Program-made: the position numbers and the translations under genes
Shown: positions 1,250-57,525 of the stretch, piece by piece
How positions within the stretch are numbered: position 1 is the stretch's first letter
Layout of the letters: each line of letters begins with the position of its first letter
IMG/VR virus record: IMGVR_UViG_3300033149_004566
Span: 1-64,000 of that record
Reading direction: 5' to 3' (one strand)
Length of the DNA: 64,000 bases
DNA from: a virus
The notes under the pieces: generated by a model
What the model saw: the letters and a program-made list of their open reading frames with translations, nothing else
Told to the model about the DNA's origin: nothing
Databases searched by the model: none

Positions 1250-1827
1250 TTCGTTATCTTGATATTTTTCGGGAGACTTTTACTTATAAAATGTGGCTCC
1301 CTGCATCTGAAGCAATGCGACTTGTCATATGCAGCAAGTATTGCTTCAGTAAAATTATTTAGAGACAACGGAATTTTTTCTATGATGTCGTCATCTCTAA
1401 CTCTCTTTTCAAACATGACGTCCGTTGTTACGTCCCCAGACAATTTGTCGATGTGATATTTTTTTAATGTAATTATGATATTTTTCACATCGCGTTTTGC
1501 TAGTCTGTCGACGGTTACCTCTATCAGAACCGGCATTGCCGTCGTGAACAAGGCCTGGACTTTGAGAGGTCTTACGGATTTATGAATGTAAAATGGCTTG
1601 AGAGGGTCGCCGTTTCCATTGCATATTACGGTGGCTTGTCCGAACCCAACATGGATTCCGCCACCCTTTTCTTCACCTACTAGTCTCCATGCTAGTAGAT
1701 TACTGTCAATTCTTTTATTTATATTGACAATCTGAGAAACGTAATAGTTTCTCCTTAATTTTCTCCATTTGATTTTCGGCACCTGTATTGGTGAACGTGC
1801 CGTTGCTTGCTTTTTCATAGATATCAT
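1243..1827 (-). CDS. Hypothetical protein with C-terminal CxxCxEPH motif (paralog of 6725..7303)
   Basis: Shared GGG..G.AT.IC..NG..LKPF and C..CREPHFI motifs. Confidence 0.8.
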   Translation of the reverse strand: MISMKKQATARSPIQVPKIKWRKLRRNYYVSQIVNINKRIDSNLLAWRLVGEEKGGGIHVGFGQATVICNGNGDPLKPFYIHKSVRPLKVQALFTTAMPVLIEVTVDRLAKRDVKNIIITLKKYHIDKLSGDVTTDVMFEKRVRDDDIIEKIPLSLNNFTEAILAAYDKSHCFRCREPHFISKSLPKNIKITKW

Positions 1828-1836
1828 CCTCCTTTT

Positions 1837-2100
1837 TTAAAATATTTTTATTTTATTGTTTTTATTTTTTAATTCTCTCACGTTTTCAAGACATTCATGG
1901 AGTATCTTCAAAACATCCTCATTAATGTCTTCGGTCACGTGAGTGACCTCATCGACGATTTTATTGGACACGAGATGAATCGCGCCCTCTATCAAAACGT
2001 CATTAAAGACAGCCCCGTCCTCATCAATGAAACAAGGAACATCCCTGAGAATTGAGCCATCTCGAAGTTTAAAGTCCCGTTTTCCTCTTTTTCTGATCAT
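1837..2100 (-). CDS. Hypothetical protein
   Basis: ORF in co-directional gene string. Confidence 0.6.
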   Translation of the reverse strand: MIRKRGKRDFKLRDGSILRDVPCFIDEDGAVFNDVLIEGAIHLVSNKIVDEVTHVTEDINEDVLKILHECLENVRELKNKNNKIKIF

Positions 2101-2296
2101 GTATTCTCAACTACTTTTAATTTTTTCCATATCACCGTTGAAAATGTCTGTTATCCAATGTTCCAGGTCGGAAATACGGATGGTGACATTTTCCTTGAAC
2201 ATGATCTTTTCATAACTCATGATCTTTTTGAAAAGATCCATGAGCTTGTTCATGTCGCCCACGGTGACATTTTCCAATTTTAAAATAATATCACCT

Positions 2297-2677
2297 CTAA
2301 AACGTAATTTTTATATTCTTGCCATGTGCTATGGCAAGATTAACGTACTCACGAAATACATTTTCGTGATAGAGTTTATTTGAGCTTTCATTGTCTCTAA
2401 TAAACTCTAATAGATTCAAATTTAACAGAATGCACGGATCTTCCGAAAACGTGCCAAGGCACGGCTCGGAAAATAGTTTTTCATCGAATCCCAATAGAAA
2501 TTCGATGACTTCATCTATCTGGCCTATAGACCCGAACCAACATCCCTCTCCGCCACTAATAGAGGGATGAAGGTTAAAATCACACCTCGTGCACATCTTG
2601 ACGTCGTTATGCACGAGATTCATTATCTCACATCCGCTGTCGATTTCAATGCATACGCCCAAAGTAAGTCGCCACAC
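2297..2677 (-). CDS. Hypothetical protein
   Basis: ORF overlapping neighbours in operon fashion. Confidence 0.6.
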   Translation of the reverse strand: MWRLTLGVCIEIDSGCEIMNLVHNDVKMCTRCDFNLHPSISGGEGCWFGSIGQIDEVIEFLLGFDEKLFSEPCLGTFSEDPCILLNLNLLEFIRDNESSNKLYHENVFREYVNLAIAHGKNIKITF

Positions 2678-3026
2678 TTTTTATGTTATTTAAGCATTTT
2701 TTACAAATATCCGCGCCCCATAAAGATTTCGGATGATCATCGTTATCGTCCTTAAACTCTACGGCCGACAGATATATGAATTTTTTTACCAATGTGTTGC
2801 AGATGCTACACGTCACGTTGTACGACGCATTGTTATTTTTTTTACCATAATATGCTGCTAATATTTCATCATCTCCAATTCCTTCTATCAACGTGGGGAT
2901 GATGTTTTTAGCACCCAAATATTTTACGAATGCGTAATCTATTTCGCAATTCTTAATTCCGGGATTGTCGATGCCTTTTATGCACAACAACCTCCAGATC
3001 AAGTCATTTTTACTTATTTGTCTCAT
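2646..3026 (-). CDS. Hypothetical protein with two CxxC motifs
   Basis: CSIC and CKKC motifs; coupled to neighbours. Confidence 0.6.
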   Translation of the reverse strand: MRQISKNDLIWRLLCIKGIDNPGIKNCEIDYAFVKYLGAKNIIPTLIEGIGDDEILAAYYGKKNNNASYNVTCSICNTLVKKFIYLSAVEFKDDNDDHPKSLWGADICKKCLNNIKSVATYFGRMH

Positions 3027-3349
3027 CTGAATCTCGCCTCTTTTACATTTACATCGAGTGCCTCGTCCAACATCGCGCTCTTTTCGAGAAGCCTGCCCAA
3101 TTTTTCAATTATTTCTTCTTTTTTGTATCTATCCGGCATGCCTCTCCGATCGAAATTCCTCATATCTATTACATCGTGTTTCCAGAAGATCCATTCATCT
3201 CTCAGCTCTTCCGGAAGAGATTGAGGAATTTCTAATTCCAATAAATGATCGGTTGCCCTCATGAAAAAATCACGAGAGCGGTCTTTTGCGTGTTTTAGAA
3301 ACAGCCCGATGCAGTATAAAAATCCAGAGCCAAATCTCGATTCATTCAT
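3023..3349 (-). CDS. Hypothetical protein
   Basis: ORF overlapping neighbours. Confidence 0.65.
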   Translation of the reverse strand: MNESRFGSGFLYCIGLFLKHAKDRSRDFFMRATDHLLELEIPQSLPEELRDEWIFWKHDVIDMRNFDRRGMPDRYKKEEIIEKLGRLLEKSAMLDEALDVNVKEARFR

Positions 3350-3689
3350 TCCATTTGCCCTCCAAAAACACCTTTTTCATTATGCCATATAGGCATTTGT
3401 TGCATTTCCTGAACCACGTAACCATCCTGCATCGACCGCATAAATCCAACGGTTCCAACAGTTTTCTCATGTCGCTCATTTTTCCATCGGATGCAGCGAC
3501 GTCCAGTATTTTGCAGTTCAATTTTTTGAACTCTTCTACAGCATTGTCCACGCACTTTCTGCACGTCTGGTGTTCCATCTCGATCTCATCCACGCTTTCA
3601 TGCTTTATTTTATCAAACATGTCGCGCGTTATTTCAACGTTGTTCATCGTTACACTCCCACACGCGGGACACACGACGATGTAGATCAA
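3342..3689 (-). CDS. Multi-CxxC zinc-binding protein
   Basis: Four CxxC pairs; C-terminal pattern shared with 3686..4372 and 4933..5538. Confidence 0.7.
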   Translation of the reverse strand: MIYIVVCPACGSVTMNNVEITRDMFDKIKHESVDEIEMEHQTCRKCVDNAVEEFKKLNCKILDVAASDGKMSDMRKLLEPLDLCGRCRMVTWFRKCNKCLYGIMKKVFLEGKWNE

Positions 3690-4372
3690 TCAAACGACAC
3701 CCCGAAGTACGCCATGTAATGCATGACGTCGCAATTATTACAGTGCTCGGCGAATAAGAGACGGCACAACGAGCACGCTCTCTTTACAAGAGCATTGCTT
3801 TTTTCTTTAAATTCACCAAGCGGCAACCCACGTAAATTTTTAAGATAACGCAGGTTTATCACTGCGTCTCTGAAATTTTTCTCAGCTGTATCTTCACAGC
3901 TGCTACAGAGTCTTTCGTTTTTTTCACCGATCAACTCGATTATTGTTTTTCCGTCATTACACATTATGCCGTCGAACACGTACGTGTTGTCCTCAACATG
4001 ATGCAGCGTGGATATGTAGATCTCATCAAATCCACCTAGTTTTATGTACTCGGCGCCGCACATGACGCACTTGTGAGGAACGCACTGCATGCTCTTTAGC
4101 TTGTTGAGTATTCCGGCTCCACTCCGATGATACGTCATTATCACCAACGGAGCCTTTTTATCATTGATATTTTTAAGGATGACCAATTCATCCCTTAATA
4201 TTGCGCCCTCGTTCATTGAGAGCGTTTCAAACACTGGCCTTTCACCGGGTAAGCTGATCCATCTCGACCTTGCAAAGAGGAGATGGAACGGCAGTTTTGT
4301 TATTGATGTATAAGTCATTTTTATTTTAACCTCACGTAAATGTATACAATTGAAATTTGCGACGCAGTCCAC
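3686..4372 (-). CDS. Multi-CxxC zinc-binding protein (paralog of 4933..5538)
   Basis: KLPFHLLFARSRW vs KMPLHVLFGKARW; four CxxC pairs. Confidence 0.75.
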   Translation of the reverse strand: MDCVANFNCIHLREVKIKMTYTSITKLPFHLLFARSRWISLPGERPVFETLSMNEGAILRDELVILKNINDKKAPLVIMTYHRSGAGILNKLKSMQCVPHKCVMCGAEYIKLGGFDEIYISTLHHVEDNTYVFDGIMCNDGKTIIELIGEKNERLCSSCEDTAEKNFRDAVINLRYLKNLRGLPLGEFKEKSNALVKRACSLCRLLFAEHCNNCDVMHYMAYFGVSFD

Positions 4373-4939: not shown

Positions 4940-5538
4940 TTTAGTCCCCGTTTAATTACAGCAAAACCACAATCATCGCAGAGGTCATCGTCGCCAGACT
5001 GTGCTATGGTGCAGGCCTTGCACGATTTTTCCATTATTTTTCTTATTATTTTTCTGACCTCTCCGATTGCCGGCGTGTTCATTTCCATCACCATGTCGGC
5101 GACTTCTTTCAGCGTTCTCAACCTCACTATCGATTCGCGATAGCACCGGCTGCATGTTTCAACGTGATTCCGATCGGTAACGTGCAAGAACACCCCGTGC
5201 TCGTTGAATTTATTGTCAAGAAAGTACGTGACGTAATCCAATCGGTACATGTCTTTCAAGTAATAATTTCTACCAAATGGATCACTTACGAACTTATTAT
5301 TGCATCCCGGACACGTGAAGACCACCATTGGATACACGTGATCGTACGCCAATACTGATGGATTCTGATGGGTTGCAAAAACATACCCATCGTCCATCTC
5401 GATCAGGTAAAAATCTATCTCACGCTCTTTGGCACGTGTTAGCCAATACGTGACGAATTCCTGATCGGGATATCCGACCCATCTTGCCTTTCCAAAGAGT
5501 ACATGGAGAGGCATTTTTTTGAACATTCTTTTGATCAT
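4933..5538 (-). CDS. Multi-CxxC zinc-binding protein
   Basis: Paralog of 3686..4372. Confidence 0.75.
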   Translation of the reverse strand: MIKRMFKKMPLHVLFGKARWVGYPDQEFVTYWLTRAKEREIDFYLIEMDDGYVFATHQNPSVLAYDHVYPMVVFTCPGCNNKFVSDPFGRNYYLKDMYRLDYVTYFLDNKFNEHGVFLHVTDRNHVETCSRCYRESIVRLRTLKEVADMVMEMNTPAIGEVRKIIRKIMEKSCKACTIAQSGDDDLCDDCGFAVIKRGLKC

Positions 5539-5695
5539 ATCAACACCGAAACAACTTTATTTATTTTTGGACGTTTTTTTTAATTTTTTCTGGACGATGC
5601 GTCCAAAATTATTTTTATAGTTTTTGCCATTAAAATACTCGGCATACTCGTCAACATAGCCGAGTATTTTTAACTTTTTTTTGATTTCTTTCATG

Positions 5696-6214
5696 TCAAC
5701 ACCTTTTGAGTGCAATAGAAAAGAATTTTTTTATTATTTCAAAATATTTTTTAATATCTTCTTGTTTACTTATCATATTAGTATTCCAGACCGTGGTTCC
5801 AACTTCCCCATCAGTAAACGAAAAGAGAAGTTGAGACAATTCCATTTTAAATTTAGGAATTAGAATATACCCACAGTCAATTAGTCTTTTCAAATACTTT
5901 GAAAAGTGTAGAATATAATATGTAGTTTTTTTATCTTCATAAAAAAAACTATCTTTCTCGATAGTTACTCCTAATTTGATGCCACGATTTATTTTTTCAA
6001 TAAATTTTTCGACATTTTCTTCGGATACGATTACTTCAGCATCATATCTATTAATAATATCACGTGGCATTTTTCTATGAAGATACAATGAATATATTTC
6101 GCCGTCAACGCGTAATAAAAATGGCTCAGACGGTAGACATACCGCTAGACTTGCGTCTGTAATTACATTTTTTTCATCACTATGTATTTTTTTTACCTTT
6201 ATTAACTCAAACAT
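5696..6214 (-). CDS. Hypothetical protein
   Basis: 172-aa ORF with GGTGGTGA SD upstream. Confidence 0.65.
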   Translation of the reverse strand: MFELIKVKKIHSDEKNVITDASLAVCLPSEPFLLRVDGEIYSLYLHRKMPRDIINRYDAEVIVSEENVEKFIEKINRGIKLGVTIEKDSFFYEDKKTTYYILHFSKYLKRLIDCGYILIPKFKMELSQLLFSFTDGEVGTTVWNTNMISKQEDIKKYFEIIKKFFSIALKRC

Positions 6215-6247
6215 TTTTTTTCACCACCAATAAAAAAAAAGATTGTC

Positions 6248-6311
6248 ATTCCGAATTTTCCCGACCCGATCGGTCGAGAAGCGGCAACCGCGATGGTTGC
6301 CGTTTCGGAAT
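6248..6311 (-). terminator. Three-way-junction RNA structure followed by U-tract
   Basis: Outer stem ATTCCGAA/TTCGGAAT enclosing hairpins CGGCAACC/GGTTGCCG and CGACC/GGTCG; T-run downstream on minus strand. Confidence 0.5.
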
Positions 6312-6314
6312 TTA

Positions 6315-6485
6315 TCATGACTTTTTTTTAAGCGGTTTAATTCCGCTTTCCACGCGACGGAGTTCGCCTATGGCGTCATCCACCGCGCGGATGAATCTTT
6401 TATATTTTTTCGGGCCTTCCGCCTGCCTCTTGACCTTTATGAGACAGGCAAAGGCCCTGTTAATATTTAACCCTTCTTCAATCAC
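6315..6485 (-). CDS. Small hypothetical protein (start trimmed from the 6659 call)
   Basis: AAGGAGGTGA SD/GTG at 6485; the upstream extension runs through a structured RNA. Confidence 0.5.
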   Translation of the reverse strand: MIEEGLNINRAFACLIKVKRQAEGPKKYKRFIRAVDDAIGELRRVESGIKPLKKKS

Positions 6486-6623
6486 CTCCTTAACGTTTTT
6501 ATCCCACCGCAGAAATGCATGTTTTCCCGCGCCCGGCCCGGCACTGGAAAACTGCTCTATTGACCAACGGGGATAAGCCGATCGGCCAACTATCCCGCGG
6601 TGCTTGGACAACGTAAGGAGATT

Positions 6624-6678
6624 GAAGATTCTTGGTTTAAAGCCCCGCCGCCGCGTCAAGGCGATCCTCGTGGCGGGG
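6624..6678 (-). ncRNA. Minimal HDV/CPEB3-like ribozyme candidate, copy 1
   Basis: P1 CCCCGCC/GGCGGGG, P2 GAGGAU/AUCUUC, P3 GCC/GGC, L3 UUGACGC, J4/2 CCAA. Confidence 0.75.
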
Positions 6679-6724
6679 AGAAAAAATTAGGAGAAAATAT
6701 AGGCACAGTATGATGAATGTTGAT

Positions 6725-7303
6725 TTATCTAATGAAGTGAGGCTCTCGACAATGATAACATGTCGATTTCCTCAATCCAGCTTCGATAGCTTCTTTATAG
6801 CTATCGTACTTTCTTGGTATGCTTCTCATGACGTCATCGTAAAGCGCATCTGCACTTTGGTCTAAAGACCAGACTTCAGTGCGTTTTACGATGTTGTCGT
6901 TTATTGTCCACCTGTATATCGATACGCTAAAATCCTCGCGATGATGATTCACGTGGATTTCAACGAATCTCTGACCTATGAACGTGGCGTGCTCAGAGCA
7001 CGCCAAGTGTCCTCGTTTAATGACTCGAAACGGCTTTAACTTCTCACCGTTCAAGCCACAAATTATCGTGGCGTGTCCGGTGTTGCTGTATCCGCCGCCG
7101 TTCTCCGATAAAAGAAATCTCCAATAACAGTTCTCCAATTTTGGGAGAACTGTATTGTTATTATATAGGTTGAACAGTTGAGAAACACTGTGCCCTCTGA
7201 GAACCGACCACTGTATTACATGCTCCTCGTTGTCGATTTTAACCGTTTTTATTTCTTCTGGAGCTTCTGTTTTTGCTACTAACTGTAGCAACTCTATCAC
7301 CAA
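6725..7303 (-). CDS. Hypothetical protein (paralog of 1243..1827)
   Basis: GGGYSNTGHATIICGLNGEKLKPF; CYHCREPHFIR. Confidence 0.8.
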   Translation of the reverse strand: MVIELLQLVAKTEAPEEIKTVKIDNEEHVIQWSVLRGHSVSQLFNLYNNNTVLPKLENCYWRFLLSENGGGYSNTGHATIICGLNGEKLKPFRVIKRGHLACSEHATFIGQRFVEIHVNHHREDFSVSIYRWTINDNIVKRTEVWSLDQSADALYDDVMRSIPRKYDSYKEAIEAGLRKSTCYHCREPHFIR

Positions 7304-7361
7304 TTATCTTGCCTTCCCATTCGGAGCCCTTTCGGGCTTTATAGTCGCGTCATTACGACTC

Positions 7362-7418
7362 GATCGCCTCTCGGTACAAGCCCCTCCACCACGACAAGGT
7401 GGACGATCATCGGAGGGG
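7362..7418 (-). ncRNA. Minimal HDV/CPEB3-like ribozyme candidate, copy 2
   Basis: P1 CCCCUCC/GGAGGGG, P2 GAUCGUC/GGCGAUC, P3 ACC/GGU, L3 UUGUCGU, J4/2 CCGA. Confidence 0.78.
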
Positions 7419-7427
7419 AGAAAAAAA

Positions 7428-7550
7428 TTATTCGGATTTCTTGAACATCTCTTCGAGCTCTTTTAAGAGGCGGGAGATGTTTTCCTTCGCCTCCTCGGGC
7501 GAGGAGGGAGGCGAAAGTGGGGAAGATGTGGGAAAGTAATGGATTTTCAT
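7428..7550 (-). CDS. Small 40-aa ORF MKIHYFPTSSPLSPPSSPEEAKENISRLLKELEEMFKKSE
   Basis: Hand-translated; GTGG SD-like site; stop directly before the U-tract and ribozyme copy 2. Confidence 0.45.
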   Translation of the reverse strand: MKIHYFPTSSPLSPPSSPEEAKENISRLLKELEEMFKKSE

Positions 7551-7753
7551 AGTTTACCACGCCATCTTTTTTATTTTTTTTATAATCATAAATACTTTTC
7601 TTATATCGTCTGCTTCGCGCGTCCTGAGCACGCGAAACAGCGCTGTAAGAAAAACTTTCGTATAAATTACACGTCGACAGGTATGTAATGTTAATTTATC
7701 TTGTAGCTGTTCCAATTCTTTACCGCACGGATGTGCGGTAAAGTAATTATGTA

Positions 7754-8059
7754 TTATATTCGTTTTTGCCCCATCCTATACGTAAATATGAAGTCAGTCG
7801 AATCTACAGAAGATAATGGATAGCCCATCTCGCATTCGCGAAACGAGCTGACCATATACCTTAGATTGAAACATCTACCGAATATCTTCCTTCTCATCCG
7901 ATAAGGAAGATATTCCTCCGCAATCCTCGCACGCGCTTTCAGCAAGAAAGCGAAAAGCGCGTCGATAAAAGTGGCACGGCATTTATGACATACCATTTTT
8001 TCTCGCGAAGCAGTTTTCCTTTTCACGTTCATGATTTTTATTATTCTTTTTAGATCCAT
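7754..8059 (-). CDS. Hypothetical protein
   Basis: GGTGA SD before ATG; followed by perfect 11-bp hairpin CTTTACCGCAC/GTGCGGTAAAG. Confidence 0.65.
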   Translation of the reverse strand: MDLKRIIKIMNVKRKTASREKMVCHKCRATFIDALFAFLLKARARIAEEYLPYRMRRKIFGRCFNLRYMVSSFRECEMGYPLSSVDSTDFIFTYRMGQKRI

Positions 8060-8095
8060 TTAATCACCAGACTAAGAAAACGATTCGATTTTACT

Positions 8096-8155
8096 GCGGG
8101 TGAAGCAGTTTCCTGCCCCGCACGTCCCGCAAGGCGTGCGGACTGACAGAAAAAA
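8096..8155 (-). repeat. Structured intergenic repeat (pseudoknot motif B), copy 1
   Basis: 50-bp segment 8106..8155 identical to 8466..8515; stem CCGCACG/CGUGCGG whose loop GCGGG is complementary to downstream CCCGC. Confidence 0.75.
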
Positions 8156-8168
8156 TTTAGATAGAAAG

Positions 8169-8426
8169 TCACCCAACAAGACGTATACCAGCCATACAAT
8201 AGTGCTGATCTCCTCTGTGGTAAATGTTTTTACATTTACTCCAATTTGTCATACAATAATTGCACTCTATGACAGCTACGCAATATTCGTGTCCATATTT
8301 GTCACAGACTTTACTTTTGCAATGCCCTTTATTGTCCTCATAAGGACAAAGAGCAACACAATCTTGTAATGATACAATAGCACCCATATCGAGTGCTTTT
8401 TGTATATATTTCGATATATGTTTCAT
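8169..8426 (-). CDS. Cys-rich small protein (start trimmed to MKHISKY)
   Basis: GGAAGTGG SD before ATG at 8426; many Cys. Confidence 0.65.
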   Translation of the reverse strand: MKHISKYIQKALDMGAIVSLQDCVALCPYEDNKGHCKSKVCDKYGHEYCVAVIECNYCMTNWSKCKNIYHRGDQHYCMAGIRLVG

Positions 8427-8454
8427 TAAACCACTTCCTTTTTTATTTTTTCTA

Positions 8455-8515
8455 GCGGGTCGTAACAGTTTCCTGCCCCGCACGTCCCGCAAGGCGTGCG
8501 GACTGACAGAAAAAA
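8455..8515 (-). repeat. Structured intergenic repeat (pseudoknot motif B), copy 2
   Basis: Identical core to 8106..8155, 360 bp apart; CCCGC retained with a different spacer. Confidence 0.75.
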
Positions 8516-8551
8516 GGAGATTAAAAATAAAGAACTTATGTATACAAATAT

Positions 8552-8857
8552 TTAAATTTCTTCTTCGCTCTCCGCCGCGCATTTGTAGCAGAGATAGATT
8601 TTTTTTTTATTTTCTGATATTTCATCATCATCGTAGGGATCCGGCATTAAAAAAACCCAATACCGGGATCCACATCTCTCGCATGCGTTGCGAGAGATCG
8701 ACTTTTTATATAATATAGAAAAGTGTTCACATGGTTCAATGCTTTTCATTCTTCTGGCATTGCCAGAGAACAAAAAGCACGTTGGATATACGTTGCCATT
8801 CCACGTGTCTATCCACGTGAAATAACAACAAAAATTGCATTTGATTAAATTTATCAT
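8552..8857 (-). CDS. Cys-rich zinc-finger-like small protein
   Basis: CNFC, CERC, CYKC; GGAAGTGA SD. Confidence 0.65.
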   Translation of the reverse strand: MINLIKCNFCCYFTWIDTWNGNVYPTCFLFSGNARRMKSIEPCEHFSILYKKSISRNACERCGSRYWVFLMPDPYDDDEISENKKKIYLCYKCAAESEEEI

Positions 8858-8879
8858 GGTAAATATCACTTCCTTTTAG

Positions 8880-8936
8880 ATCGCCTCTTGGTGGTAAGCC
8901 CCTCCACCACGGCAAGGTGGGCGATTGTCGGAGGGG
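8880..8936 (-). ncRNA. Minimal HDV/CPEB3-like ribozyme candidate, copy 3
   Basis: P1 CCCCUCC/GGAGGGG, P2 AUCGCC/GGCGAU, P3 ACC/GGU, L3 UUGCCGU, J4/2 CCAA. Confidence 0.78.
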
Positions 8937-8953
8937 AGAAAAAAAAGATTGGT

Positions 8954-9268
8954 TTAATCCTCATCATCGTCTTCTTCCACTACATCGTAGTGGAAGAGGC
9001 CTTCCAATTCCTTCCAAGGGAGGAAAGAAAGGGAGACACATGACTCCGAAACGTTACTAACGACTTCCATCGTAAAGAAGTCGTAGTAACCAACATCCTC
9101 CATGAAAGAGGGTTCAAAATCTCCCCCTCTCTTATGGAGGACGAAATTAACTCGACCTCCATATTTTTTCATGGAGTACATAATTGCCTTAATTGACAGC
9201 TTTTTGGAGGGATGTTGTCCTCGAAGTTTTAACTTTAAACATTTTAAAATTGGATCCATAGGCATCAC
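8954..9268 (-). CDS. Hypothetical protein with acidic tail
   Basis: ORF between ribozyme copies 4 and 3. Confidence 0.6.
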   Translation of the reverse strand: MMPMDPILKCLKLKLRGQHPSKKLSIKAIMYSMKKYGGRVNFVLHKRGGDFEPSFMEDVGYYDFFTMEVVSNVSESCVSLSFLPWKELEGLFHYDVVEEDDDED

Positions 9269-9332
9269 ACCGTTTTTTTTTGCATTCCTTTCGGGCTCCT
9301 TTTCGGAGCTTTAGCGTCGGGTCGTCCGACGT

Positions 9333-9389
9333 GACCATCTCTCGGTAAAAGCCTCCCCACCACGGCAAGGTGGATGGTCGTCGGGGAGG
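9333..9389 (-). ncRNA. Minimal HDV/CPEB3-like ribozyme candidate, copy 4
   Basis: P1 CCUCCCC/GGGGAGG, P2 GACCAUC/GAUGGUC, P3 ACC/GGU, L3 UUGCCGU, J4/2 CCGA. Confidence 0.8.
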
Positions 9390-9525
9390 AAAACTTATTC
9401 ACCAGCTCTTTACGCGATCTTCCGCTAGAGGGAGGGAGGATAGGTGAAGAATTATGAAACACAAAAAAAAGGTGCGGAAGATCTTCACGCGAGCCGGTGA
9501 TCTTCAAAAAAATAGTGTGTGAAGT

Positions 9526-10509
9526 TCATGCCTTTTTGGACAGCAGTTTCCACTGATAATATTCGTCCAGCTTGGAATCCAAGTCCAGAAAACAGTCCGT
9601 GCAAAGGCCGTGCATGCGAACCGTCCTACAGGACGGAACGACGTAATTTCCGACTATGCTCTTGAGCTGATCATCGGTAACGCGGGAATTATAATCCCTC
9701 CAATGACCCATGCCGTGCAACTTTTTTATCAGGTCTTTGATGCCGCACGGCGTGAGTTGCCCGGTGTAGAGCAGGTAGACCGTCATCATCCAGCGCGCCC
9801 AGTGCACCGGGTTGTCCGTGCCGAGTATGGATCGTTCGATGCACGGCGGAAGAATCAAGTCCTTAAAAGAAGCCGTATCGGAGCCCGCCATCGACAGAGG
9901 CTCCATGTCGGGATAATTTTTATCCCACGATGAAAGATCGACCAGTTTCTTTCCGATCACCGTGATCTTTCCGCTCGGAGTTCTTGCAAGTTTCAAGACA
10001 TGATCTTTGCCGGCGTAAAGATCGTCCAACGTGACGGGCACGCAATAAAGCCCGGACTTCAAGTGTACCGTGAACGGCACGCGCGCCATCTGGCTCAGGT
10101 CTCCCTTGATGTGAAAATCATTTGACTTCAAATCCAGTTTTTCCTCGACGTGAGCCACGTAGGATCTAAGAGCATTTTTTTTATTCACCGGTTCCGTGCA
10201 CCACCTGTAATGGTGGAATCCTTTTCTTCCGGAAAAAAAATTCACGTGCTTGATGCCGTCATCAATGGCATCGAGTGTCAGCTTGATGGCGTCGTCCAGC
10301 GCGCCCTCACCGTCCAGATCGAAGAACACTTTATCAACCACTGCCGTGGGATAGGTAGCCCGTAGGTGATTGGCTTCACGAAAGCCGTACACCGTGACGT
10401 AACAATGCTTGCCGCCATTATACTTGTTGATGAGATCCATCATTTCTTCCCTGGATCTGACCAGCACGCGTTTTGGGAAGCCGACTTCCCTCGGAAAAAT
10501 ATCATACAT
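9526..10509 (-). CDS. Archaeo-eukaryotic primase (PriS-like catalytic domain fused to PriL-CTD-like Cys domain)
   Basis: FFDLD, SGRKGFH, GDLSQMARVP; C-terminal LPPCI..HWAR..PSC...GLC..C; start trimmed to MYDIFP. Confidence 0.85.
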   Translation of the reverse strand: MYDIFPREVGFPKRVLVRSREEMMDLINKYNGGKHCYVTVYGFREANHLRATYPTAVVDKVFFDLDGEGALDDAIKLTLDAIDDGIKHVNFFSGRKGFHHYRWCTEPVNKKNALRSYVAHVEEKLDLKSNDFHIKGDLSQMARVPFTVHLKSGLYCVPVTLDDLYAGKDHVLKLARTPSGKITVIGKKLVDLSSWDKNYPDMEPLSMAGSDTASFKDLILPPCIERSILGTDNPVHWARWMMTVYLLYTGQLTPCGIKDLIKKLHGMGHWRDYNSRVTDDQLKSIVGNYVVPSCRTVRMHGLCTDCFLDLDSKLDEYYQWKLLSKKA

Positions 10510-26276: not shown

Positions 26277-27133
26277 TTAACGGTACGTTCAATACCATCG
26301 CTCCAACTAACGCGGGGTCTCCACCCCATGGTTCTCATCTTCACGTAATTAAGTCCCTGATGCACGATTTCTCTCACGTTGTTTTCTTTTTTAACATGCA
26401 ACAATTCCGATGAAGGAAAGAATCGCGCCAAATCCTTCACGACTTCTTCTTGTGTCTTTCTAACACCGGTTCCGACGTTCCAAGCTTCGCCAGCCGTTGT
26501 ATCAATGTGATCCATGAGAAAGATGAGAGCATCAACAACATCATCCACGTAAATGTATTCTCTCGTGGATGCATCATCATAAATCACGGCCTTGTTCTTG
26601 GCAATTAAACACCGCAGGGTGTTGGGAATAATCCTCTTATTTTTATCGCCGGGCCCGTACACGTTAACTGATCTCATCACTGTAGCGTTCACGTTCATTT
26701 CATTCGCAAATATTAACGTCGCCTGATCCGCTGCAGCTTTAGTAGCACCGTAGATGTCGATCGGCCTTAACGGGCAATTTTCATCCGTCGGTATTACATC
26801 AGCATTGCCGTATACTTTATCGGTGCTCATCACCACGACGTCGATATCATACCTGGACGCCACCCTAAGGACGTTTAACGTGCCAATTACATTTGTATTA
26901 TATGACGTCCACGGAATTCTCTTGGCCCGAGCGACAATCGTTTCCGCGGCAAGATGATATATCTTCCTCACGTCTTTTTTTACAACTATCTCGTTCAATC
27001 TATCATGGTCAGTCACGTCACCAACAACGTCGCGTTCTTCTCTAGATCCGTAACGCGTCAGACCCCACGCATCGAGACGTTTTCTCAGATGGCTTCCGAT
27101 GAAGCCGCTACTTCCCGTTACCAATACTTGCAA
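26252..27133 (-). CDS. NAD-dependent nucleotide-sugar epimerase/dehydratase
   Basis: TGSSGFIG, HLAA, STDKVYG, YGATK, NVYGPGD. Confidence 0.92.
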   Translation of the reverse strand: MQVLVTGSSGFIGSHLRKRLDAWGLTRYGSREERDVVGDVTDHDRLNEIVVKKDVRKIYHLAAETIVARAKRIPWTSYNTNVIGTLNVLRVASRYDIDVVVMSTDKVYGNADVIPTDENCPLRPIDIYGATKAAADQATLIFANEMNVNATVMRSVNVYGPGDKNKRIIPNTLRCLIAKNKAVIYDDASTREYIYVDDVVDALIFLMDHIDTTAGEAWNVGTGVRKTQEEVVKDLARFFPSSELLHVKKENNVREIVHQGLNYVKMRTMGWRPRVSWSDGIERTVKWWKKELV

Positions 27134-27938
27134 CTCTCAAATACCTCCTTAAATCGTCTTTAAGATCGTCTTCAGCTTCGTGAAGATAATCGTAAAATTT
27201 CATTTTTTCCATCGTCATGTTTCCGTGATGAATGATGTTGTACCGCGTGTAAACTGGATTTTTCGGCGAAAGAACTTCATGAACCGGTCTACTCCACGTC
27301 AGACTTTTCTTATACAGCCTGCACTGCCAATCTGGATAATCAAACATCTTTTCATTTATCCTGCGAAAATAAAAAGCGTCGTTGTCCGGATTTTGTTCTA
27401 TGAGAGATTTTAGATTTTTTCTTCCCACGTATTCCATCGTCTCATCGGCATCCAGCGTGAAAAGCCACTCGTGCTTTGCTATGGACGCCGCAAAATTTCG
27501 CAATTCGCTAAAAGATCCGTTAAAACTCGTCTTTATGAACTTGATCGGCATTCCAACGTATAAAGACACGTCAAAATCGAACGGATAATCGGTTTCGTGG
27601 AGTATCATCACTTCATCAACGTGCCTCGCCACCTGTCTTATCGTCCTGTAAATGGTGTTCCACTCGTCCTTCAGTATCTGATAGAACGTTATCTTCGTGG
27701 TTTTTTTGACGCGATCTATCAGATCGCCATATATGTCGTACTCTTCAAGTCTCAACATGGATCCGAAATAATTTTTATATTCAAATATTTCCATCAGATT
27801 GCAATTGTTGCAATACGCTTTCGCCATAAGAGCTTCTCTATTATAATCCGTTCTCAACCCGAAATGTATGTTTCCTTTATGACAATTCGGACACTTGAAC
27901 GTTTTTTTATTCTTGCGTTTCTTTTTACGCTTCGTCAT
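27108..27938 (-). CDS. Elf1-like zinc ribbon fused to family 2 glycosyltransferase
   Basis: MTKRKKKRK..FKCPNC..AYCNNC..EEYDIYGDLID followed by FSELRN, WLFTLDADE, PVHE. Confidence 0.75.
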   Translation of the reverse strand: MTKRKKKRKNKKTFKCPNCHKGNIHFGLRTDYNREALMAKAYCNNCNLMEIFEYKNYFGSMLRLEEYDIYGDLIDRVKKTTKITFYQILKDEWNTIYRTIRQVARHVDEVMILHETDYPFDFDVSLYVGMPIKFIKTSFNGSFSELRNFAASIAKHEWLFTLDADETMEYVGRKNLKSLIEQNPDNDAFYFRRINEKMFDYPDWQCRLYKKSLTWSRPVHEVLSPKNPVYTRYNIIHHGNMTMEKMKFYDYLHEAEDDLKDDLRRYLRVASIGNGK

Positions 27939-34812: not shown

Positions 34813-35430
34813 TCATCCAATCAACCTCTTGCATTCTTCTATTGCGTCCCTCGGATAGAAAGCCCATGCATCGGCTCCCATCTTTTTAGCACGCTCTTTT
34901 GAGACCGGGCGACCGCCGACAATGACCTTCATGTTTCTCTTTTTGGCGGCTTTCACGACCCTTTCCATCTCATCCAAACACGTCGACAGAAGCGTGGATA
35001 GCGCGAGTATGTCCGCATCGTGTTCCTCCATGGCATCGAGGAATTGTTCTTCCGTGACTTCAACGCCGAGATCGTACACCATAAACCCGGCCCCGATTAG
35101 AAAAGCACTGATGATCGTCTTCCCAATATCATGTATGTCTCCCCTGACAGAGCCAAACACGATTCTTCCAAGTGATGCATTTTTATCGCCCTCTAAAATG
35201 GGCTTGAGCATGTCAATGCCCCTACTGGCACGGTCGCCGGCTATCAATAATTCGGCGAGGAAATATTCCCCGTTTTCGTACATTTCTCCCACCGTGTCAA
35301 GGGCGGAAGACATGACAGATATTAGATCGGAAACGTCGGCACCGTTTTTGAGAGCATCATTTATCAACGACTCCATGCGGTCATCATCATCGATGTCGAT
35401 CACGTTTCGCTTCAATTCATTAATAAACAT
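34813..35430 (-). CDS. Cobalamin-binding corrinoid protein (MtbC/MttC/MtaC-like)
   Basis: Cap domain (VGEMYENGEYFLAELL), GDIHDIGK B12 motif, LSTLL, VIVGGRP, GADA; start trimmed to MFINEL. Confidence 0.9.
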   Translation of the reverse strand: MFINELKRNVIDIDDDDRMESLINDALKNGADVSDLISVMSSALDTVGEMYENGEYFLAELLIAGDRASRGIDMLKPILEGDKNASLGRIVFGSVRGDIHDIGKTIISAFLIGAGFMVYDLGVEVTEEQFLDAMEEHDADILALSTLLSTCLDEMERVVKAAKKRNMKVIVGGRPVSKERAKKMGADAWAFYPRDAIEECKRLIG

Positions 35431-50320: not shown

Positions 50321-51989
50321 TCCGTTTTTGGATGATTTTCTAAAAAAATACGATTTCAAGGGCATGGATGATAACAGAATCATGAAGATGCTCTTGTCGT
50401 CTTTAGATTGGTCTACGTTTGCGGAAACGTGGTTTAGAAACCCAATAGATCCCACGCTACCATTAAAATTGGAAAAGTTTCAGCGCCGCATCATAAATTA
50501 TTTTCAATACGGCAAGTGCAGTAACATAATTGTCAAGTGCCCCCGTCAATTTGGTAAAACCACTCTCATATCGATATTGTGTAATTTAATTGCCATTTTT
50601 GATCCGGGTGCTAAGATAGGCCTATTTTCTACATCACACGACCAGTCCAAGGAGATATTGGGTAAGGTCAGGAAATTCATGAGAACGTCGGCATTTTCTT
50701 ACTTACTTGACGATAAAAGCGTTCAAACGCAAACCGAAATAAATTATAAGGATCCTCGCGGCCTTGGGCATGGGTGCAGGATTAAAGCGTATTCTAGTTC
50801 TGGCAAAACCGTTCGTGGCCCCGATTTGACTTACACGTTTATGGATGAAATGGGCCAAATGGACGACGACTTCGTAAATCAGGTTGTCCGTCCGATGGGA
50901 AGGGCTGTTGGAAAGAAAGAACTCGGGGCAAGCACTCCTTTCGGTACGAGGGGCGAGTTTTGGAACTCACATGAGAAGCCGTATCATTGGGAATGTCAAT
51001 CGTGTCATGCTAAGGGCTTTGATGAACCACACCCTTACACGTGCCCGAAATGCGGCGGTTCAGTTCAGACTCTTGGCCAATATAAAGTGTTTGATGTTTC
51101 ACCTCTTGACGTGTCTTGGATCACGCCCGAAAAACTTGCGGCAGAAGCTGCACGTCTCGGCCCGATTGCAGCGCAACAGGAGCTGTTTGGAGAGTTTATC
51201 CCGGCCGGAGATACTTATTTTAGACACGACTGGATAGTGAATGCCAGGGTTTTCACGCCAGAGCAAAATTCAAGATTTTCATCCATGGGAAAACCGTATT
51301 ATACCTATTATCTTTCCACGGATTATGGTAAACAACGTGATAGAGGCGTGATCATGATAGGCCATTTTCAGGATGACGTGTTGTATCTGGATTGGGTCGA
51401 ATCACATCTAAAAATGCCGTATCCAAGATTTCAAGATAGAATGAAAACTCTTTGTGATAGATATAATGTTTCAGAGGCCATTTTGGATGGGAACGGTGTC
51501 GGAATTGCTCTCATAGATTATCTCCGCGAGGACGTGCAGGTGCCGATTTTTACCAACAAGCCCGATTTGGGCCCCGGATATAAGTACGGTAACAAGGAGA
51601 AATTTCAGATGTTGGAAGCTCTTGCCAACATGTTGATACGGAAGAGAGTTCGTTGGCCGTATCATGAAAATCACTCTGACCCGAGGCAGGAAATGTATGA
51701 GTTATACATGATGGAGCAGGAGCTCATCAATTATTCTTATGAATGGGGAAAATCGTCAATCATAATGGGAACTCAGAGCGAGCACGACGATAGGGTCATG
51801 GCTTTGGCACAGCTCGTTGGGGCAACAATGATGACACATTTTGACGATGTCATGCCGTATGGGGCTTCTGACGTGTCAAGAGATGATCGCGGATGGCCGG
51901 TTTTTGACGAGGTCGGGGAAGAATTTGACGTGATGTGGGTTGATAACACGACGGATCCGGAGTACGAAATATATGACACCATCTTCTGA
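50301..51989 (+). CDS. terL: Terminase large subunit
   Basis: PRQFGKTT, TFMDEM, ASTPFG, STDYG, LDGNGVG, HDDRV. Confidence 0.93.
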   Translation: MDVRSISPFLDDFLKKYDFKGMDDNRIMKMLLSSLDWSTFAETWFRNPIDPTLPLKLEKFQRRIINYFQYGKCSNIIVKCPRQFGKTTLISILCNLIAIFDPGAKIGLFSTSHDQSKEILGKVRKFMRTSAFSYLLDDKSVQTQTEINYKDPRGLGHGCRIKAYSSSGKTVRGPDLTYTFMDEMGQMDDDFVNQVVRPMGRAVGKKELGASTPFGTRGEFWNSHEKPYHWECQSCHAKGFDEPHPYTCPKCGGSVQTLGQYKVFDVSPLDVSWITPEKLAAEAARLGPIAAQQELFGEFIPAGDTYFRHDWIVNARVFTPEQNSRFSSMGKPYYTYYLSTDYGKQRDRGVIMIGHFQDDVLYLDWVESHLKMPYPRFQDRMKTLCDRYNVSEAILDGNGVGIALIDYLREDVQVPIFTNKPDLGPGYKYGNKEKFQMLEALANMLIRKRVRWPYHENHSDPRQEMYELYMMEQELINYSYEWGKSSIIMGTQSEHDDRVMALAQLVGATMMTHFDDVMPYGASDVSRDDRGWPVFDEVGEEFDVMWVDNTTDPEYEIYDTIF

Positions 51990-52746
51990 CTTGCGGCCGA
52001 AAATATCCCTTTTTACGTTATTGCCTTACGTGATTCAGGAGCATAAAGCCAAGCGTGCCGGCTTACACTACGACTTTCGCGTGAAGCGCGGCGAAAATGA
52101 TTGGGAATCCTGGGCGATAAGAAAGGGATTTCCGAAAAAGCCCGGGATAAAACATCTGGCCGCACCGACGCCGAGTCATGATGAATATTGGGCAAAATTT
52201 AGCGGCGTCATACCCAGGGGTTACGGCTCCGGTAGACAGAAAGTCGTTGAAAGCGGAAAAATAGACGTGATAAGGGAGCGAAAGAAAAAAAATAAATCGA
52301 TTACTTTCAAAAAGGGAAAAGATTATTACACCATGATAAAGTTAAAAAAGGGAAAAAATTGGTTGATTTTTAAAAACGAGTCGGTGAAGTGGCGCAGGAC
52401 GAAGAGCGGGGGCAAATTTCCGAAGATCGATGAGATGGAAAAGGGAATGCCAAAAATGACGAACAAGCAATATAAGGAGTTTTACAAGCGGATGTTGGAC
52501 TTGGGCTTGTTGAATCAATATAAAACGATTGGTAAGCCCATAAAACAGGATCATGGGGGCATACCCATAATAGAAGATGGAATGTCGGCTCTTTCGGCTT
52601 ATCCTACAGCTATAGGGGAAGTGTGTCCGAAATGTGGACACCCGGAAATAAAAACGTGGCAGCGTCAGACTAGATCTGCTGACGAACCGATGACGCAGTT
52701 TTTCAGATGTGTCAGGTGCGGATATACCTGGAGGGAATACGATTGA
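51973..52746 (+). CDS. LigD-type 3'-phosphoesterase fused to TFS/TFIIS C-terminal zinc ribbon
   Basis: VIQEH..LHYDFR..SWAIRKG..HLA....H...FSGVIPRGYGSG; CPKCG..QRQTRSADEPMTQFFRCVRCGYTWREY. Confidence 0.88.
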   Translation: MTPSSDLRPKISLFTLLPYVIQEHKAKRAGLHYDFRVKRGENDWESWAIRKGFPKKPGIKHLAAPTPSHDEYWAKFSGVIPRGYGSGRQKVVESGKIDVIRERKKKNKSITFKKGKDYYTMIKLKKGKNWLIFKNESVKWRRTKSGGKFPKIDEMEKGMPKMTNKQYKEFYKRMLDLGLLNQYKTIGKPIKQDHGGIPIIEDGMSALSAYPTAIGEVCPKCGHPEIKTWQRQTRSADEPMTQFFRCVRCGYTWREYD

Positions 52747-55266: not shown

Positions 55267-57525
55267 ATGATACCCGTGTCCGTATTGATGGAACCGCCCA
55301 AGGTGGTAAAAGATCCTTTAAAATCATCGTCATTGATAAAGTCATTCGTGATGATGAATAAAATGAAATTTAAGGGTCTGGTTCCAAAAATAATGGACGC
55401 TATCAGGCAATCCAGGCGCGTTGTTCAGATGGAAACCGGTGCACGATATCTCAAGAGATACATCGATAACATGTTATATAATAGCATTGTCGATCCGCAT
55501 TTATTGGATAGGATGAAGTCATTCGTGGAAAACACGTATATTCAACACTCTAGAATGTTGCAAGAAGAATTGTATAAATTGAAGATGGTTCCCACGACAA
55601 TGGCCGTCATGACTCCTACTGATGAGGACAGGGTAGAGGATAGAAAGGATACTATAGAAAAAATGGCAAGCCTGGAAGCCGAACGCTTGAGTGCGAGGAT
55701 TCATGACATAATAGATAGGGCTTATCATAATGCCGAACCGTTATACAAAATAAAAAAAGAACTACAAAAATCCATAAAAGTTAGCAAGAAAGAATCCGCT
55801 AGAATTGCCAGAACCGAGCTCATAAAAACCATGAACTTGGCCAGGTTGGAACGTATGACTTCATCGGGGATCGAATATTATCAGTGGGTTTCGGCTCCTT
55901 CGTTTGATGAGAGATTGTGTCCTTTATGTGGCGAATTAAATGGAAAAGTAATAAAGTTGGGCAGGTCGTTTTCGGATTTAGTGCGAAACGAATCATCCAA
56001 GAAAATAATGGGAACTAGACAGATCTATTATCCTCCGGCACATCCGAATTGCAGGTGCACTATAAGGCCATCTTATGCTCCGGTAATTACCAGGCCGTTA
56101 AAAGAACCGAAATTTATAAAGAAAATATTCGATAAGTTTCCTGGCTTGAGGCCCAAAACCTTGATAACACAAAAGATCGGCCCGACTTCGATAGATATCA
56201 TACAGGCGGAAGAATTAGAGGACTGGCACGAATTGCACGATTTATATTTAAATGAATCGAAAAGATGGGGTGGCGATCTTCGTAAGCGATTGATATATCA
56301 GGCGATGGAAGCAAAAAATAGGGCAATGAAGGAAGACATAGAATTATTCGAGCGCGATAACTTGGAGGAAATGGAAAAGCCGAAATGGACGCATTATCCT
56401 TTAACAAAAGATGAAATTTATTATCATTATGCGCGAAATTGGGATAAATTGTATCCGGAATTGAAGGGCCGAAGAGTGGCGATCCGTAACCGCAGGGGCG
56501 TCATTTTACGTAATTGGGAGCCCGGTGGAAAGCCCATAGAAATAAAAAATAAAAATGATTTAAAAAAAGTAGTCTATAATAAAAATGCGGTTGAATTGAT
56601 TCCGGAGTTGAGCACCAAAAGGATGAAACCATCAAATACAAGAAGGTTTCTCGTGGATTTAGATTCAAATAGACCGATAGACGAGACGGTTGTCAAAAAA
56701 ACAGTTGAAAAAATGAAAACGCTGCCGGTCAATAATGTTCAGGTTATATTTTCCGGGAAGCGTGGATATCACGTTAGAGGTGATACAAAAAAGAGTTACA
56801 CGTGGAAAAAAGCGAGAAAAATGCTTCGTGAGGCGATGAAGCCTCTATCAGAACAATACAATGATATAATTTTTGATTTATCACCCATGAAAAGACGTGG
56901 AGTTAGTGTATCTCCTTATAGTTTGAGATATTTGCCGACAGAAAGACAGGGCGTTGCACATCACGTGCAATTTGAAGAGTGGTATGAAAAGGGTGCGTTA
57001 GGCACGCGGGACATAATTCCGGAAAAATTAAAATTGCCTAGCGGAAGAAATGCTTTCTTCAGGAAAACGTTTCTTGGCATCCAAAAACGAAAGTTGTATA
57101 CCGAACAGGAATATAAATTGCAGGCGGCTTTACCGATCATATCGGCATTGAAACACGATCTCGATTTATCCGATTCGGTACAAAAAGAAGCGAAAAGGAT
57201 ATTTAAAAAGGCTTATAGTAGCGGGATAACACAGGGTAGAAAAACATCGTCCAATGCCGCGGTATCTGTTTACAATGCCATGAGATCGTTGGGAATGAGC
57301 AGGCCGATAAAAGATTTTCTTCCGCATGCAAATGTAAAGACCGGATCTTTTGTCAGGGCGGTTAAAAAATTTCAGGACGCTTTAAACTTGCCAAAATTTA
57401 AAGTCGGAAAGCGCGCCGACGTGGAAGAGGCAAGAAAGTATTATAAAAGCATGAAACGTACCGGTATAAGCAAGCGTAAAGTTGCAAGAATGTTTGGCGT
57501 GTCTCCGTCGAGTATAGGTGATTAG
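55267..57525 (+). CDS. MuF/SPP1 gp7-like head protein carrying LigD-polymerase, TFB-core and HTH domains
   Basis: RIARTE, CPLC..LNG, PPAHPNCRC; TKDEI..Y, VDLD, SGKRGYH, IIFD, SPYSLR; cyclin-fold segment EAKRIFKKAYSSGITQGR..AAVSVY. Confidence 0.85.
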   Translation: MIPVSVLMEPPKVVKDPLKSSSLIKSFVMMNKMKFKGLVPKIMDAIRQSRRVVQMETGARYLKRYIDNMLYNSIVDPHLLDRMKSFVENTYIQHSRMLQEELYKLKMVPTTMAVMTPTDEDRVEDRKDTIEKMASLEAERLSARIHDIIDRAYHNAEPLYKIKKELQKSIKVSKKESARIARTELIKTMNLARLERMTSSGIEYYQWVSAPSFDERLCPLCGELNGKVIKLGRSFSDLVRNESSKKIMGTRQIYYPPAHPNCRCTIRPSYAPVITRPLKEPKFIKKIFDKFPGLRPKTLITQKIGPTSIDIIQAEELEDWHELHDLYLNESKRWGGDLRKRLIYQAMEAKNRAMKEDIELFERDNLEEMEKPKWTHYPLTKDEIYYHYARNWDKLYPELKGRRVAIRNRRGVILRNWEPGGKPIEIKNKNDLKKVVYNKNAVELIPELSTKRMKPSNTRRFLVDLDSNRPIDETVVKKTVEKMKTLPVNNVQVIFSGKRGYHVRGDTKKSYTWKKARKMLREAMKPLSEQYNDIIFDLSPMKRRGVSVSPYSLRYLPTERQGVAHHVQFEEWYEKGALGTRDIIPEKLKLPSGRNAFFRKTFLGIQKRKLYTEQEYKLQAALPIISALKHDLDLSDSVQKEAKRIFKKAYSSGITQGRKTSSNAAVSVYNAMRSLGMSRPIKDFLPHANVKTGSFVRAVKKFQDALNLPKFKVGKRADVEEARKYYKSMKRTGISKRKVARMFGVSPSSIGD

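Follow-up and report, generated by a model that had tools for sequence, protein, structure and literature searches.

The DNA analysed here, referred to as the window, comprises 64,000 nucleotides (nt), positions 1 to 64,000 of the 112,862-bp virus genome with the record IMGVR_UViG_3300033149_004566. Small genes on the minus strand form a row downstream of a primase-like gene, and this row contains four short elements that resemble minimal self-cleaving ribozymes of the type named after hepatitis delta virus (HDV). The four copies are all intergenic, lie in the sense orientation of the surrounding minus-strand genes and fall within 2.8 kb. A preliminary description of the window had placed four such elements here, and reading the minus strand of 6400-9600 recovered them at exactly the coordinates it gave. 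They are listed below with their parts (P, helix, with a prime for the partner strand; L, loop; J, joining strand).

6624..6678, minus strand: predicted HDV-like ribozyme copy 1, 55 nt; predicted cut 6679/6678 (between U and C); putative catalytic C at 6635; P1 6678-6672 with 6649-6643, P3 6662-6660 with 6652-6650, L3 6659-6653; RNA CCCCGCC-AC-GAGGAUC-GCC-UUGACGC-GGC-GGCGGGG-CU-UUAAA-CCAA-GA-AUCUUC
7362..7418, minus strand: predicted HDV-like ribozyme copy 2, 57 nt; predicted cut 7419/7418; putative catalytic C at 7374; RNA CCCCUCC-GAU-GAUCGUCC-ACC-UUGUCGU-GGU-GGAGGGG-CU-UGUA-CCGA-GA-GGCGAUC
8880..8936, minus strand: predicted HDV-like ribozyme copy 3, 57 nt; predicted cut 8937/8936; putative catalytic C at 8891; RNA CCCCUCC-GACA-AUCGCCC-ACC-UUGCCGU-GGU-GGAGGGG-CU-UACCA-CCAA-GA-GGCGAU
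9333..9389, minus strand: predicted HDV-like ribozyme copy 4, 57 nt; predicted cut 9390/9389; putative catalytic C at 9345; RNA CCUCCCC-GAC-GACCAUCC-ACC-UUGCCGU-GGU-GGGGAGG-CU-UUUA-CCGA-GA-GAUGGUC

The previous stop codon lies 10 to ~136 nt upstream of a copy, and the next Shine-Dalgarno sequence and start codon follow 22 to ~140 nt downstream. For example, copy 2 starts 10 nt past the stop codon of a 40-amino-acid open reading frame (ORF; 7428-7550). Copy 3 lies between the stop of the ORF 8954-9265, 17 nt upstream, and an ATG at 8857, 22 nt downstream, with the Shine-Dalgarno sequence GGAAGUGAU between the copy and this ATG.

The order P1-P2-P3-L3-P3'-P1'-CU-L4-CCRA-GA-P2', with an L4 of 4-5 nt, was found in all four copies, as had been claimed. 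The strand order P1-P2-P3-P3'-P1'-P2' is the nested double pseudoknot of HDV. Each copy is fully complementary in its 7-bp P1, in its 3-bp P3 and in P2, which has 6-7 bp and a possible further C-G pair on the other side of a bulged A, and compensatory changes separate the copies. The P1 strand reads CCCCGCC, CCCCUCC (twice) or CCUCCCC, each with a perfect partner, P3 is GCC/GGC or ACC/GGU, and the P2 sequences are unrelated. The assignment to the HDV-like nested double pseudoknot is supported by the covariation in the four copies together with 56 distinct family cores from other contigs. G·U pairs in P2 of copies 1 and 2, which would be A·C mismatches on the other strand, fix the minus strand as the one that carries the RNA. 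L3 reads UUGNCGY and J4/2 reads CCRA in every window copy. A P1 of 6-7 bp that starts at the cut site, a 3-bp P3 and a 7-nt L3 with U first and C-G at positions 5-6 are features of HDV-like ribozymes in general, and the copies share these dimensions and letters. The bulged A in P2', which had been described as conserved, is indeed present in the window copies and proved to be a trait of one sub-clade only; the G and C of the pair across the bulge are invariant, so this pair is unproven.

The core word CCTTGNCGYGG matched exactly only at the four copies. A fifth near-match (35289-35302) lies inside a coding region, lacks the helices and was rejected. A generic minimal-HDV descriptor (P1 of 6-7 bp, P3 of 3 bp, L3 UNNNCGY, CNRA and P2 of at least 5 bp), in which nt 1 and P1.1 were left free, identified only the four loci on both strands of the 112,862-bp genome and had zero matches in 10 shuffled genomes. 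Similarly, a search of the genome with the covariance model R1, trained on three window copies and two foreign ones, recovered the same four loci. Copy 1, which had been left out of the training, scored 45 bits (E = 4e-10), and copies 2, 3 and 4 scored 74, 75.2 and 71.8 bits, respectively.

The core around the predicted cut site is non-canonical, and the departures that had been claimed (C1-G37, a candidate G22-C38 with a U·U mismatch, and no P4) are all present in the four copies. The predicted cleavage-site pair C1-G37 replaces G1·U37, and the candidate Watson-Crick pair of P1.1, G22-C38, replaces C22-G38; we refer to this arrangement as the flipped core. Nucleotide +1 is C in 56 of 56 distinct cores, in place of the G1·U37 pair or the purine at +1 that is a feature of the HDV-like class. 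In a set of 23 distinct sequences, defined below, C1-G37 is invariant although the search pattern left both positions free. Nucleotide -1 is U, A or C, and a G was found there in none of the 56 distinct cores. With a G at -1, P1 would reach C38 at the expense of P1.1, so this rule fits the cut site. The same effect of a -1 G on P1.1 has been described for L1Tc (PMC3185411). The candidate P1.1, G22-C38 beside a U21·U39 mismatch, is possible in all members; it never varies, and its letters were fixed in the search patterns. The absence of G at -1 and the reversal of the pair relative to the canonical C22-G38 are indirect pointers to it. In published work, an Ackermannviridae ribozyme with a U:U pair in P1.1 cleaves fast (PMC13635239), and a C-to-U change of the catalytic C in J4/2 is inactivating (PMC10879173).

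The family extends well beyond the window. The first scans of viral, metagenome and genome contigs, filtered with R1 and a parser, provided the 23 distinct sequences (4 from the window and 19 from elsewhere), in which P1 is paired in 99.4% of cells and P2 in 93%, compared with 43% with shuffled partners. A second scan, which left everything after 'CUU' unspecified, added at least 47 distinct sequences whose 7-bp P1 is perfect and begins with C. In all 47 matches listed, C-N-R-A stands directly before P2', CUAA being the commonest form, followed by CCAA and CAGA. Since J4/2 was absent from the search pattern, the putative catalytic C, the equivalent of C75, is conserved in these sequences without having been asked for. 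A control with a non-C at the catalytic position was unclean because A-rich J4/2 makes overlapping A-N-R-A words, and J4/2 was read directly instead.

When 63 distinct sequences were aligned with R1, 99.7% of the P1 and P3 cells paired, compared with 78.9% in shuffles and 37-58% with slid partners. Six of the ten pairs changed on both sides, and the number of double-change cells (153, where 39.7 are expected) was reached in none of 500 shuffles. The same helices carry a strand signal, with 18 G·U cells against at most 2 non-pairs. Every member has UUGNCGY as its L3, but the search patterns prescribed this word (all of them demanded the U at position 1 and the C-G at 5-6), so only the four window copies provide unbiased evidence for L3. 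Approximately half of the 47 listed members have a 24-48-nt hairpin inserted exactly at the position of HDV P4, and the window copies therefore represent, within a broader flipped-core group, the form that lacks P4.

TFIIB is absent from the viral contigs whose copies are most similar, and two of these contigs have only a borderline TerL match (26% identity, E ~1e-3), which argues that the RNA family crosses virus lineages. The subfamily is common in unrelated, probably bacterial, viruses, with some members keeping P4. Members outside the window are sense-oriented and typically precede a Shine-Dalgarno sequence and start codon by 15-30 nt. A relaxed pattern on the viral contigs brought only weak or chance additions (best new R1 score 18 bits, E = 0.018), and a DNA pattern match in an archaeal metagenome-assembled genome was rejected, as it had no covariance-model match. 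Overall, the proposal of a new subfamily survives in part: the group is uncatalogued where checked, its flipped core has a precedent in the L1Tc/ingi retrotransposons, and it is found beyond this virus.

Several contigs with family members hold further RNAs. On the plus strand of metagenome contig Ga0208162_1003069, a hammerhead II (1532-1596), two pistols (2000-2066 and 2557-2621) and a flipped-core member (4089-4144) share one row of same-strand gene junctions (1532-4144), and a weaker HDV-like match lies at 813-864. On the plus strand of IMGVR_UViG_3300045988_039458 (5362-6280), a flipped-core member with the J4/2 CAGA lies between RAGATH-15 (5362-5653) and RAGATH-12 (6202-6280). Other self-cleaving ribozyme classes were discovered through such ribozyme-rich neighbourhoods. 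One further contig (L147) and ~15 similar IMG/VR contigs of 3300045988 carry a P4-bearing flipped-core member with the P1 CCCACAC behind a small covarying hairpin and UUAUUUUU. In this phage clade, a terminator-like element appears to sit right at the predicted cut site, echoing the U-tract placement in the window. P4-bearing flipped-core members also occur within large tRNA arrays on three contigs (L164, L216 and L202). On L202, the two predicted cut sites are ~180 and ~270 nt away from the end of the nearest upstream tRNA, and on L164 a tRNA begins close behind the estimated ribozyme 3' end.

Within the window, each copy stands behind a U run (6, 7, 8 and 4 U in copies 1 to 4; 0-2 nt before the predicted cut) and ahead of the next gene, in agreement with the preliminary description. 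These leaders, and the two-hairpin modules that follow copies 2 and 4, are listed here.

6679..6686, minus strand: U6-C-U leader of copy 1, directly 5' of the predicted cut site
7419..7427, minus strand: U7-C-U leader of copy 2, starting right after the TAA stop 7428-7430
8937..8946, minus strand: U8-C-U leader of copy 3
9390..9393, minus strand: U4 leader of copy 4
7305..7361, minus strand: two-hairpin module 3' of copy 2 (AGUCG/CGACU, GCCC-GAAA-GGGC, CCGAAUGG), then a GGUGAU Shine-Dalgarno sequence and a TTG start at 7303
9270..9332, minus strand: two-hairpin module 3' of copy 4 (CGUCG/CGACG, GCUCC-GAAAA-GGAGC, CCGAAAGG), with a start at 9265 beyond

When aligned, the two modules show compensatory changes in both hairpins, followed by a common CCGAANGG, and the proteins encoded downstream are unrelated. 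The genes behind the ribozymes have no Pfam or PHROG family and are unrelated orphans; likewise, an all-against-all BLAST of the small proteins in the region revealed no paralogy.

Two other kinds of structured RNA were seen in the same row of genes. Two identical 50-nt elements (D7; 8106-8155 and 8466-8515, minus strand) are placed just as the ribozymes are, in the order stop codon, U6, CU, element, Shine-Dalgarno sequence and start. In its fold, D7 is a long hairpin with the U run as part of it, and its loop GCGGG could pair with a CCCGC that both copies retain on their downstream side, after spacers that differ. D7 has no Rfam match, and two patterns found no homologue in the viral contig collection. 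In addition, the primase-like gene is followed by a minus-strand hairpin (9465-9505; GAAGAUC...GAAGAUCUUC) and then U8, ~75 nt upstream of copy 4; the transcript of the replication genes may in fact end here.

The virus has a 112.9-kb genome with terminal repeats and encodes PolB, NrdD and TerL. It comes from marine sediment. Among the sequencing runs searched, only two DNA runs of one marine-sediment study, possibly the source sample, contain the stretch, and no RNA run contains the locus. Three transcription-factor domains bear on the host. The MuF head protein (55267-57525, plus strand) ends in a TFIIB cyclin repeat (49.8 bits, Pfam), a model which, in a control among 14 genomes, had matches only in the four archaea. 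A LigD 3'-phosphoesterase is fused to a TFIIS zinc ribbon (51940-52746, plus strand; 63.8 bits, Pfam), and an Elf1-like ribbon on a glycosyltransferase (27108-27938) scored 29.6 bits, just under the 29.8 cut-off. Given these TFB, TFS and Elf1 domains, an archaeal host is well supported by the encoded proteins, if not proven. TerL does not decide the host, since its matches among phage records (at most 24% identity) mix a Methanobacterium virus with bacterial phages. A search via the primase-like protein found no relatives in the viral contig collection.

We consider it likely that the four elements are self-cleaving, P4-less HDV-like ribozymes of the flipped-core subfamily that separate cistrons. 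The fold and its conservation, the placement, the neighbourhood with other ribozyme classes, the conserved C of J4/2 and the -1 rule are established. Catalysis and the position of the cut are suggested by analogy with the HDV-like class and L1Tc, and an effect on expression, by cutting polycistronic mRNA, is plausible. Transcription of the elements would run in the same direction as that of the minus-strand genes around them. Each copy would fold co-transcriptionally and cut the RNA 5' of C1, and the general acid would be the C that opens CCRA in J4/2. The upstream message would keep a ...U(4-8)CU end with a 2',3'-cyclic phosphate, and the downstream message would start with a 5'-OH and the compact ribozyme knot, 22 to ~140 nt before the Shine-Dalgarno sequence and start. 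As a net result, a multi-gene transcript, or terminator read-through, would be split into single-gene mRNAs with defined, structured ends.

Several points weigh against this interpretation. Oligo-U is a transcription termination signal in archaea; because it can terminate by itself, the ribozymes may act only on read-through transcripts, and the terminated and read-through upstream mRNAs may end at almost the same place. Nested minimum-free-energy folds of single copies are no better than those of shuffles (z of -0.25 to -0.75). Such scores are expected, and uninformative, for pseudoknots, and the fold gains no support from them. The P1 of copy 4 has alternative wobble registers with its U/C-rich upstream run. 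Since G22-C38 is invariant across the subfamily, P1.1 rests on analogy. Pyrimidine-purine pairs at the cleavage site slow the HDV ribozyme. Moreover, with C1-G37 the G·U wobble that helps to place the catalytic metal in HDV is lost (PMC4836649). G1·U37 is nonetheless not an absolute requirement of the class, because the active L1Tc/ingi ribozymes share the C1 departure (PMC4035085).

A more far-reaching role for the same ribozymes seems improbable to us. A ribozyme 2 nt behind the oligo-U would detach the U-tract RNA from the elongating polymerase and leave a nascent 5'-OH, creating the upstream 3' end without termination, and D7, in the same U6-CU slot, would be a second processing RNA. Factor-dependent termination in archaea starts from U-rich RNA. 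If this were true, the ribozyme would uncouple 3'-end formation from termination, or would escape factor-dependent termination.

Explanations that do without cleavage, or that assign it another purpose, have to be weighed against cistron separation. It is unlikely that the elements are non-cleaving structured knots of the 5' untranslated region, their catalysis lost or never present, which block 5'-3' exonucleases, bind a protein or tune translation. C1-G37 in place of the canonical G·U wobble would agree with such a knot, as would its usual position 15-30 nt before a Shine-Dalgarno sequence, and an action like that of an internal ribosome entry site has been proposed for retrotransposon HDV-like folds (PMC6765202). 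However, a mere stable knot would not account for the first C of J4/2, kept outside the search pattern in all 47 matches listed, or for the exclusion of G at -1 (0/56), which suits a cut site and P1.1. In addition, C1-type ribozymes are active in trypanosomatids (PMC4035085), and family members share neighbourhoods with pistol and hammerhead ribozymes. We give less credence still to the idea that the elements are self-cleaving insulators or carriers of acquired small accessory genes, in which a ribozyme and its next ORF form a cassette whose mRNA is freed from the upstream RNA. This idea overlaps with the explanation we favour and does not exclude cistron separation. The small, unrelated orphan genes without a Pfam or PHROG family behind the copies would fit it, together with the two-hairpin module that copies 2 and 4 share though their genes differ and the occurrence of the flipped-core family in unrelated viruses. 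Yet the units are without flanking repeats, target duplications or mobility genes, and the differences in P1 and P2 between copies show that they are not recent duplications.

Compensatory changes that keep three crossing helices, including G·U pairs that would be mismatches on the other strand, make it highly improbable that the copies are DNA-level repeats (protein-binding or recombination sites) or chance GC-rich inverted repeats without RNA function. Their clustering in 2.8 kb beside the replication module (the primase-like gene, a nuclease and PolB) would be in keeping with such repeats, but the generic descriptor was empty in the 10 shuffled genomes, and dozens of unrelated contigs carry this architecture too, each time oriented in sense with the genes beside it.

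Eukaryotes, bacteria, phages and animal viruses are all known to have HDV-like ribozymes. In the literature, we found no report of an HDV-like or any other self-cleaving ribozyme in an archaeal virus, nor of an HDV-like ribozyme in archaea. If the four elements are self-cleaving ribozymes, they would be the first of the HDV-like class in a virus of archaea and would extend the class to a virus with archaeal-type transcription-factor domains. The flipped core, with C1-G37 stacked on the candidate G22-C38, is not confined to trypanosome retrotransposons; it defines a widespread subfamily whose tested members are missed by the current Rfam models. Four copies, each between a U-tract and the next gene, would offer a compact test-bed for the roles of ribozymes in prokaryotic viruses. 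Finally, the joint flip of two stacked pairs would amount to a natural experiment on metal positioning in the HDV active site without the G·U wobble.

The preliminary description had predicted that standard descriptors would miss the elements, and as far as was checked they do: no Rfam family reaches its threshold, and the theta-ribozyme lists are without matches. At gathering scores, Rfam 15 had no match anywhere in the genome, window included, and none in ten loci that hold other members, some of them with a P4. At permissive E-values, the best and only relevant match was to RF02682 (HDV-F-prausnitzii, drz-Fpra-1), with a full-length alignment of copy 3 at 20.3 bits compared with a gathering score of 44. 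In this alignment, P3 and L3 align as CACCU...CGUGGUG, and the J4/2 CUAAGA corresponds to CCAAGA in copy 3. The two differ in that the 21-nt P4 of RF02682 is reduced to 6 nt in copy 3, and its G1-C becomes C1-G.

None of six family P1 strands occurs in the parts of the published theta-ribozyme lists that were checked. Minimal HDV-like ribozymes (drz-Mtgn) were reportedly described by Riccitelli in 2014. The window elements resemble theta and minimal HDV-like ribozymes in being P4-less nested double pseudoknots of 50-60 nt from tailed viruses (PMC10879173), and they share with theta ribozymes a 7-bp P1, a 3-bp P3 (RCC/GGY), the L3 U-NN-NCGY and a J4/2 of C-N-R-A, including CCGA. A survey of theta ribozymes in gut Caudoviricetes counted 526 occurrences that are not tRNA-adjacent, most of them sense-oriented in non-coding regions (Kienbeck 2024, PMC10879173). 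In contrast to the flipped-core members, which all start with C, theta ribozymes are defined by a G at +1; the sampled published entries are all G1, with a P1' that ends in U or C and a P1.1 that is mostly CC/GG. Theta ribozymes are also defined by a cut site no more than 5 nt to either side of a tRNA 3' end, a placement not seen in the window, where ARAGORN found no tRNA; Rfam found none in the genome, consistent with the earlier statement that no tRNA is adjacent. The likeness to the CPEB3 ribozyme lies in the U at L3 positions 1-2 and the C-G at 5-6, in the make-up of P1.1, a candidate in the window copies, with one G-C and one U-U pair, and in a 4-nt J4/2 with the catalytic C first. CPEB3 differs in its G1·U37, its opposite P1.1 G-C pair (C22-G38), its P4 and its location in a mammalian intron (PMC4836649).

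The precedent for the flipped core, likened here by its published features, is the L1Tc/ingi (Pr77) ribozyme of trypanosomatid retrotransposons. Its cut was mapped 5' of C1, G37 and C38 follow its P1', and its P1.1 is a single base pair that is disrupted by a G at -1 (PMC3185411, PMC4035085). Its authors noted an orientation unlike that in HDV and R2, both for the G-C pairs of P1 and for the P1.1 bases (PMC3185411, PMC4035085). Since L1Tc/ingi is active with C1, a cut site at C1 is compatible with activity. The role proposed here also has a parallel, as the L1Tc/ingi ribozyme frees downstream RNA from a polycistronic co-transcript (PMC3185411, PMC4035085). L1Tc/ingi differs in being eukaryotic, ~77 nt long and P4-bearing, and in doubling as an internal promoter, whereas the window elements lack P4 and belong to a DNA virus with a prokaryotic host. 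The HDV fold class, its P4-less forms and, in trypanosomes, a C1 cut with a single-pair P1.1 are thus already known; what is new here is the host domain, the density of four copies per 2.8 kb and the systematic placement behind U-tracts.

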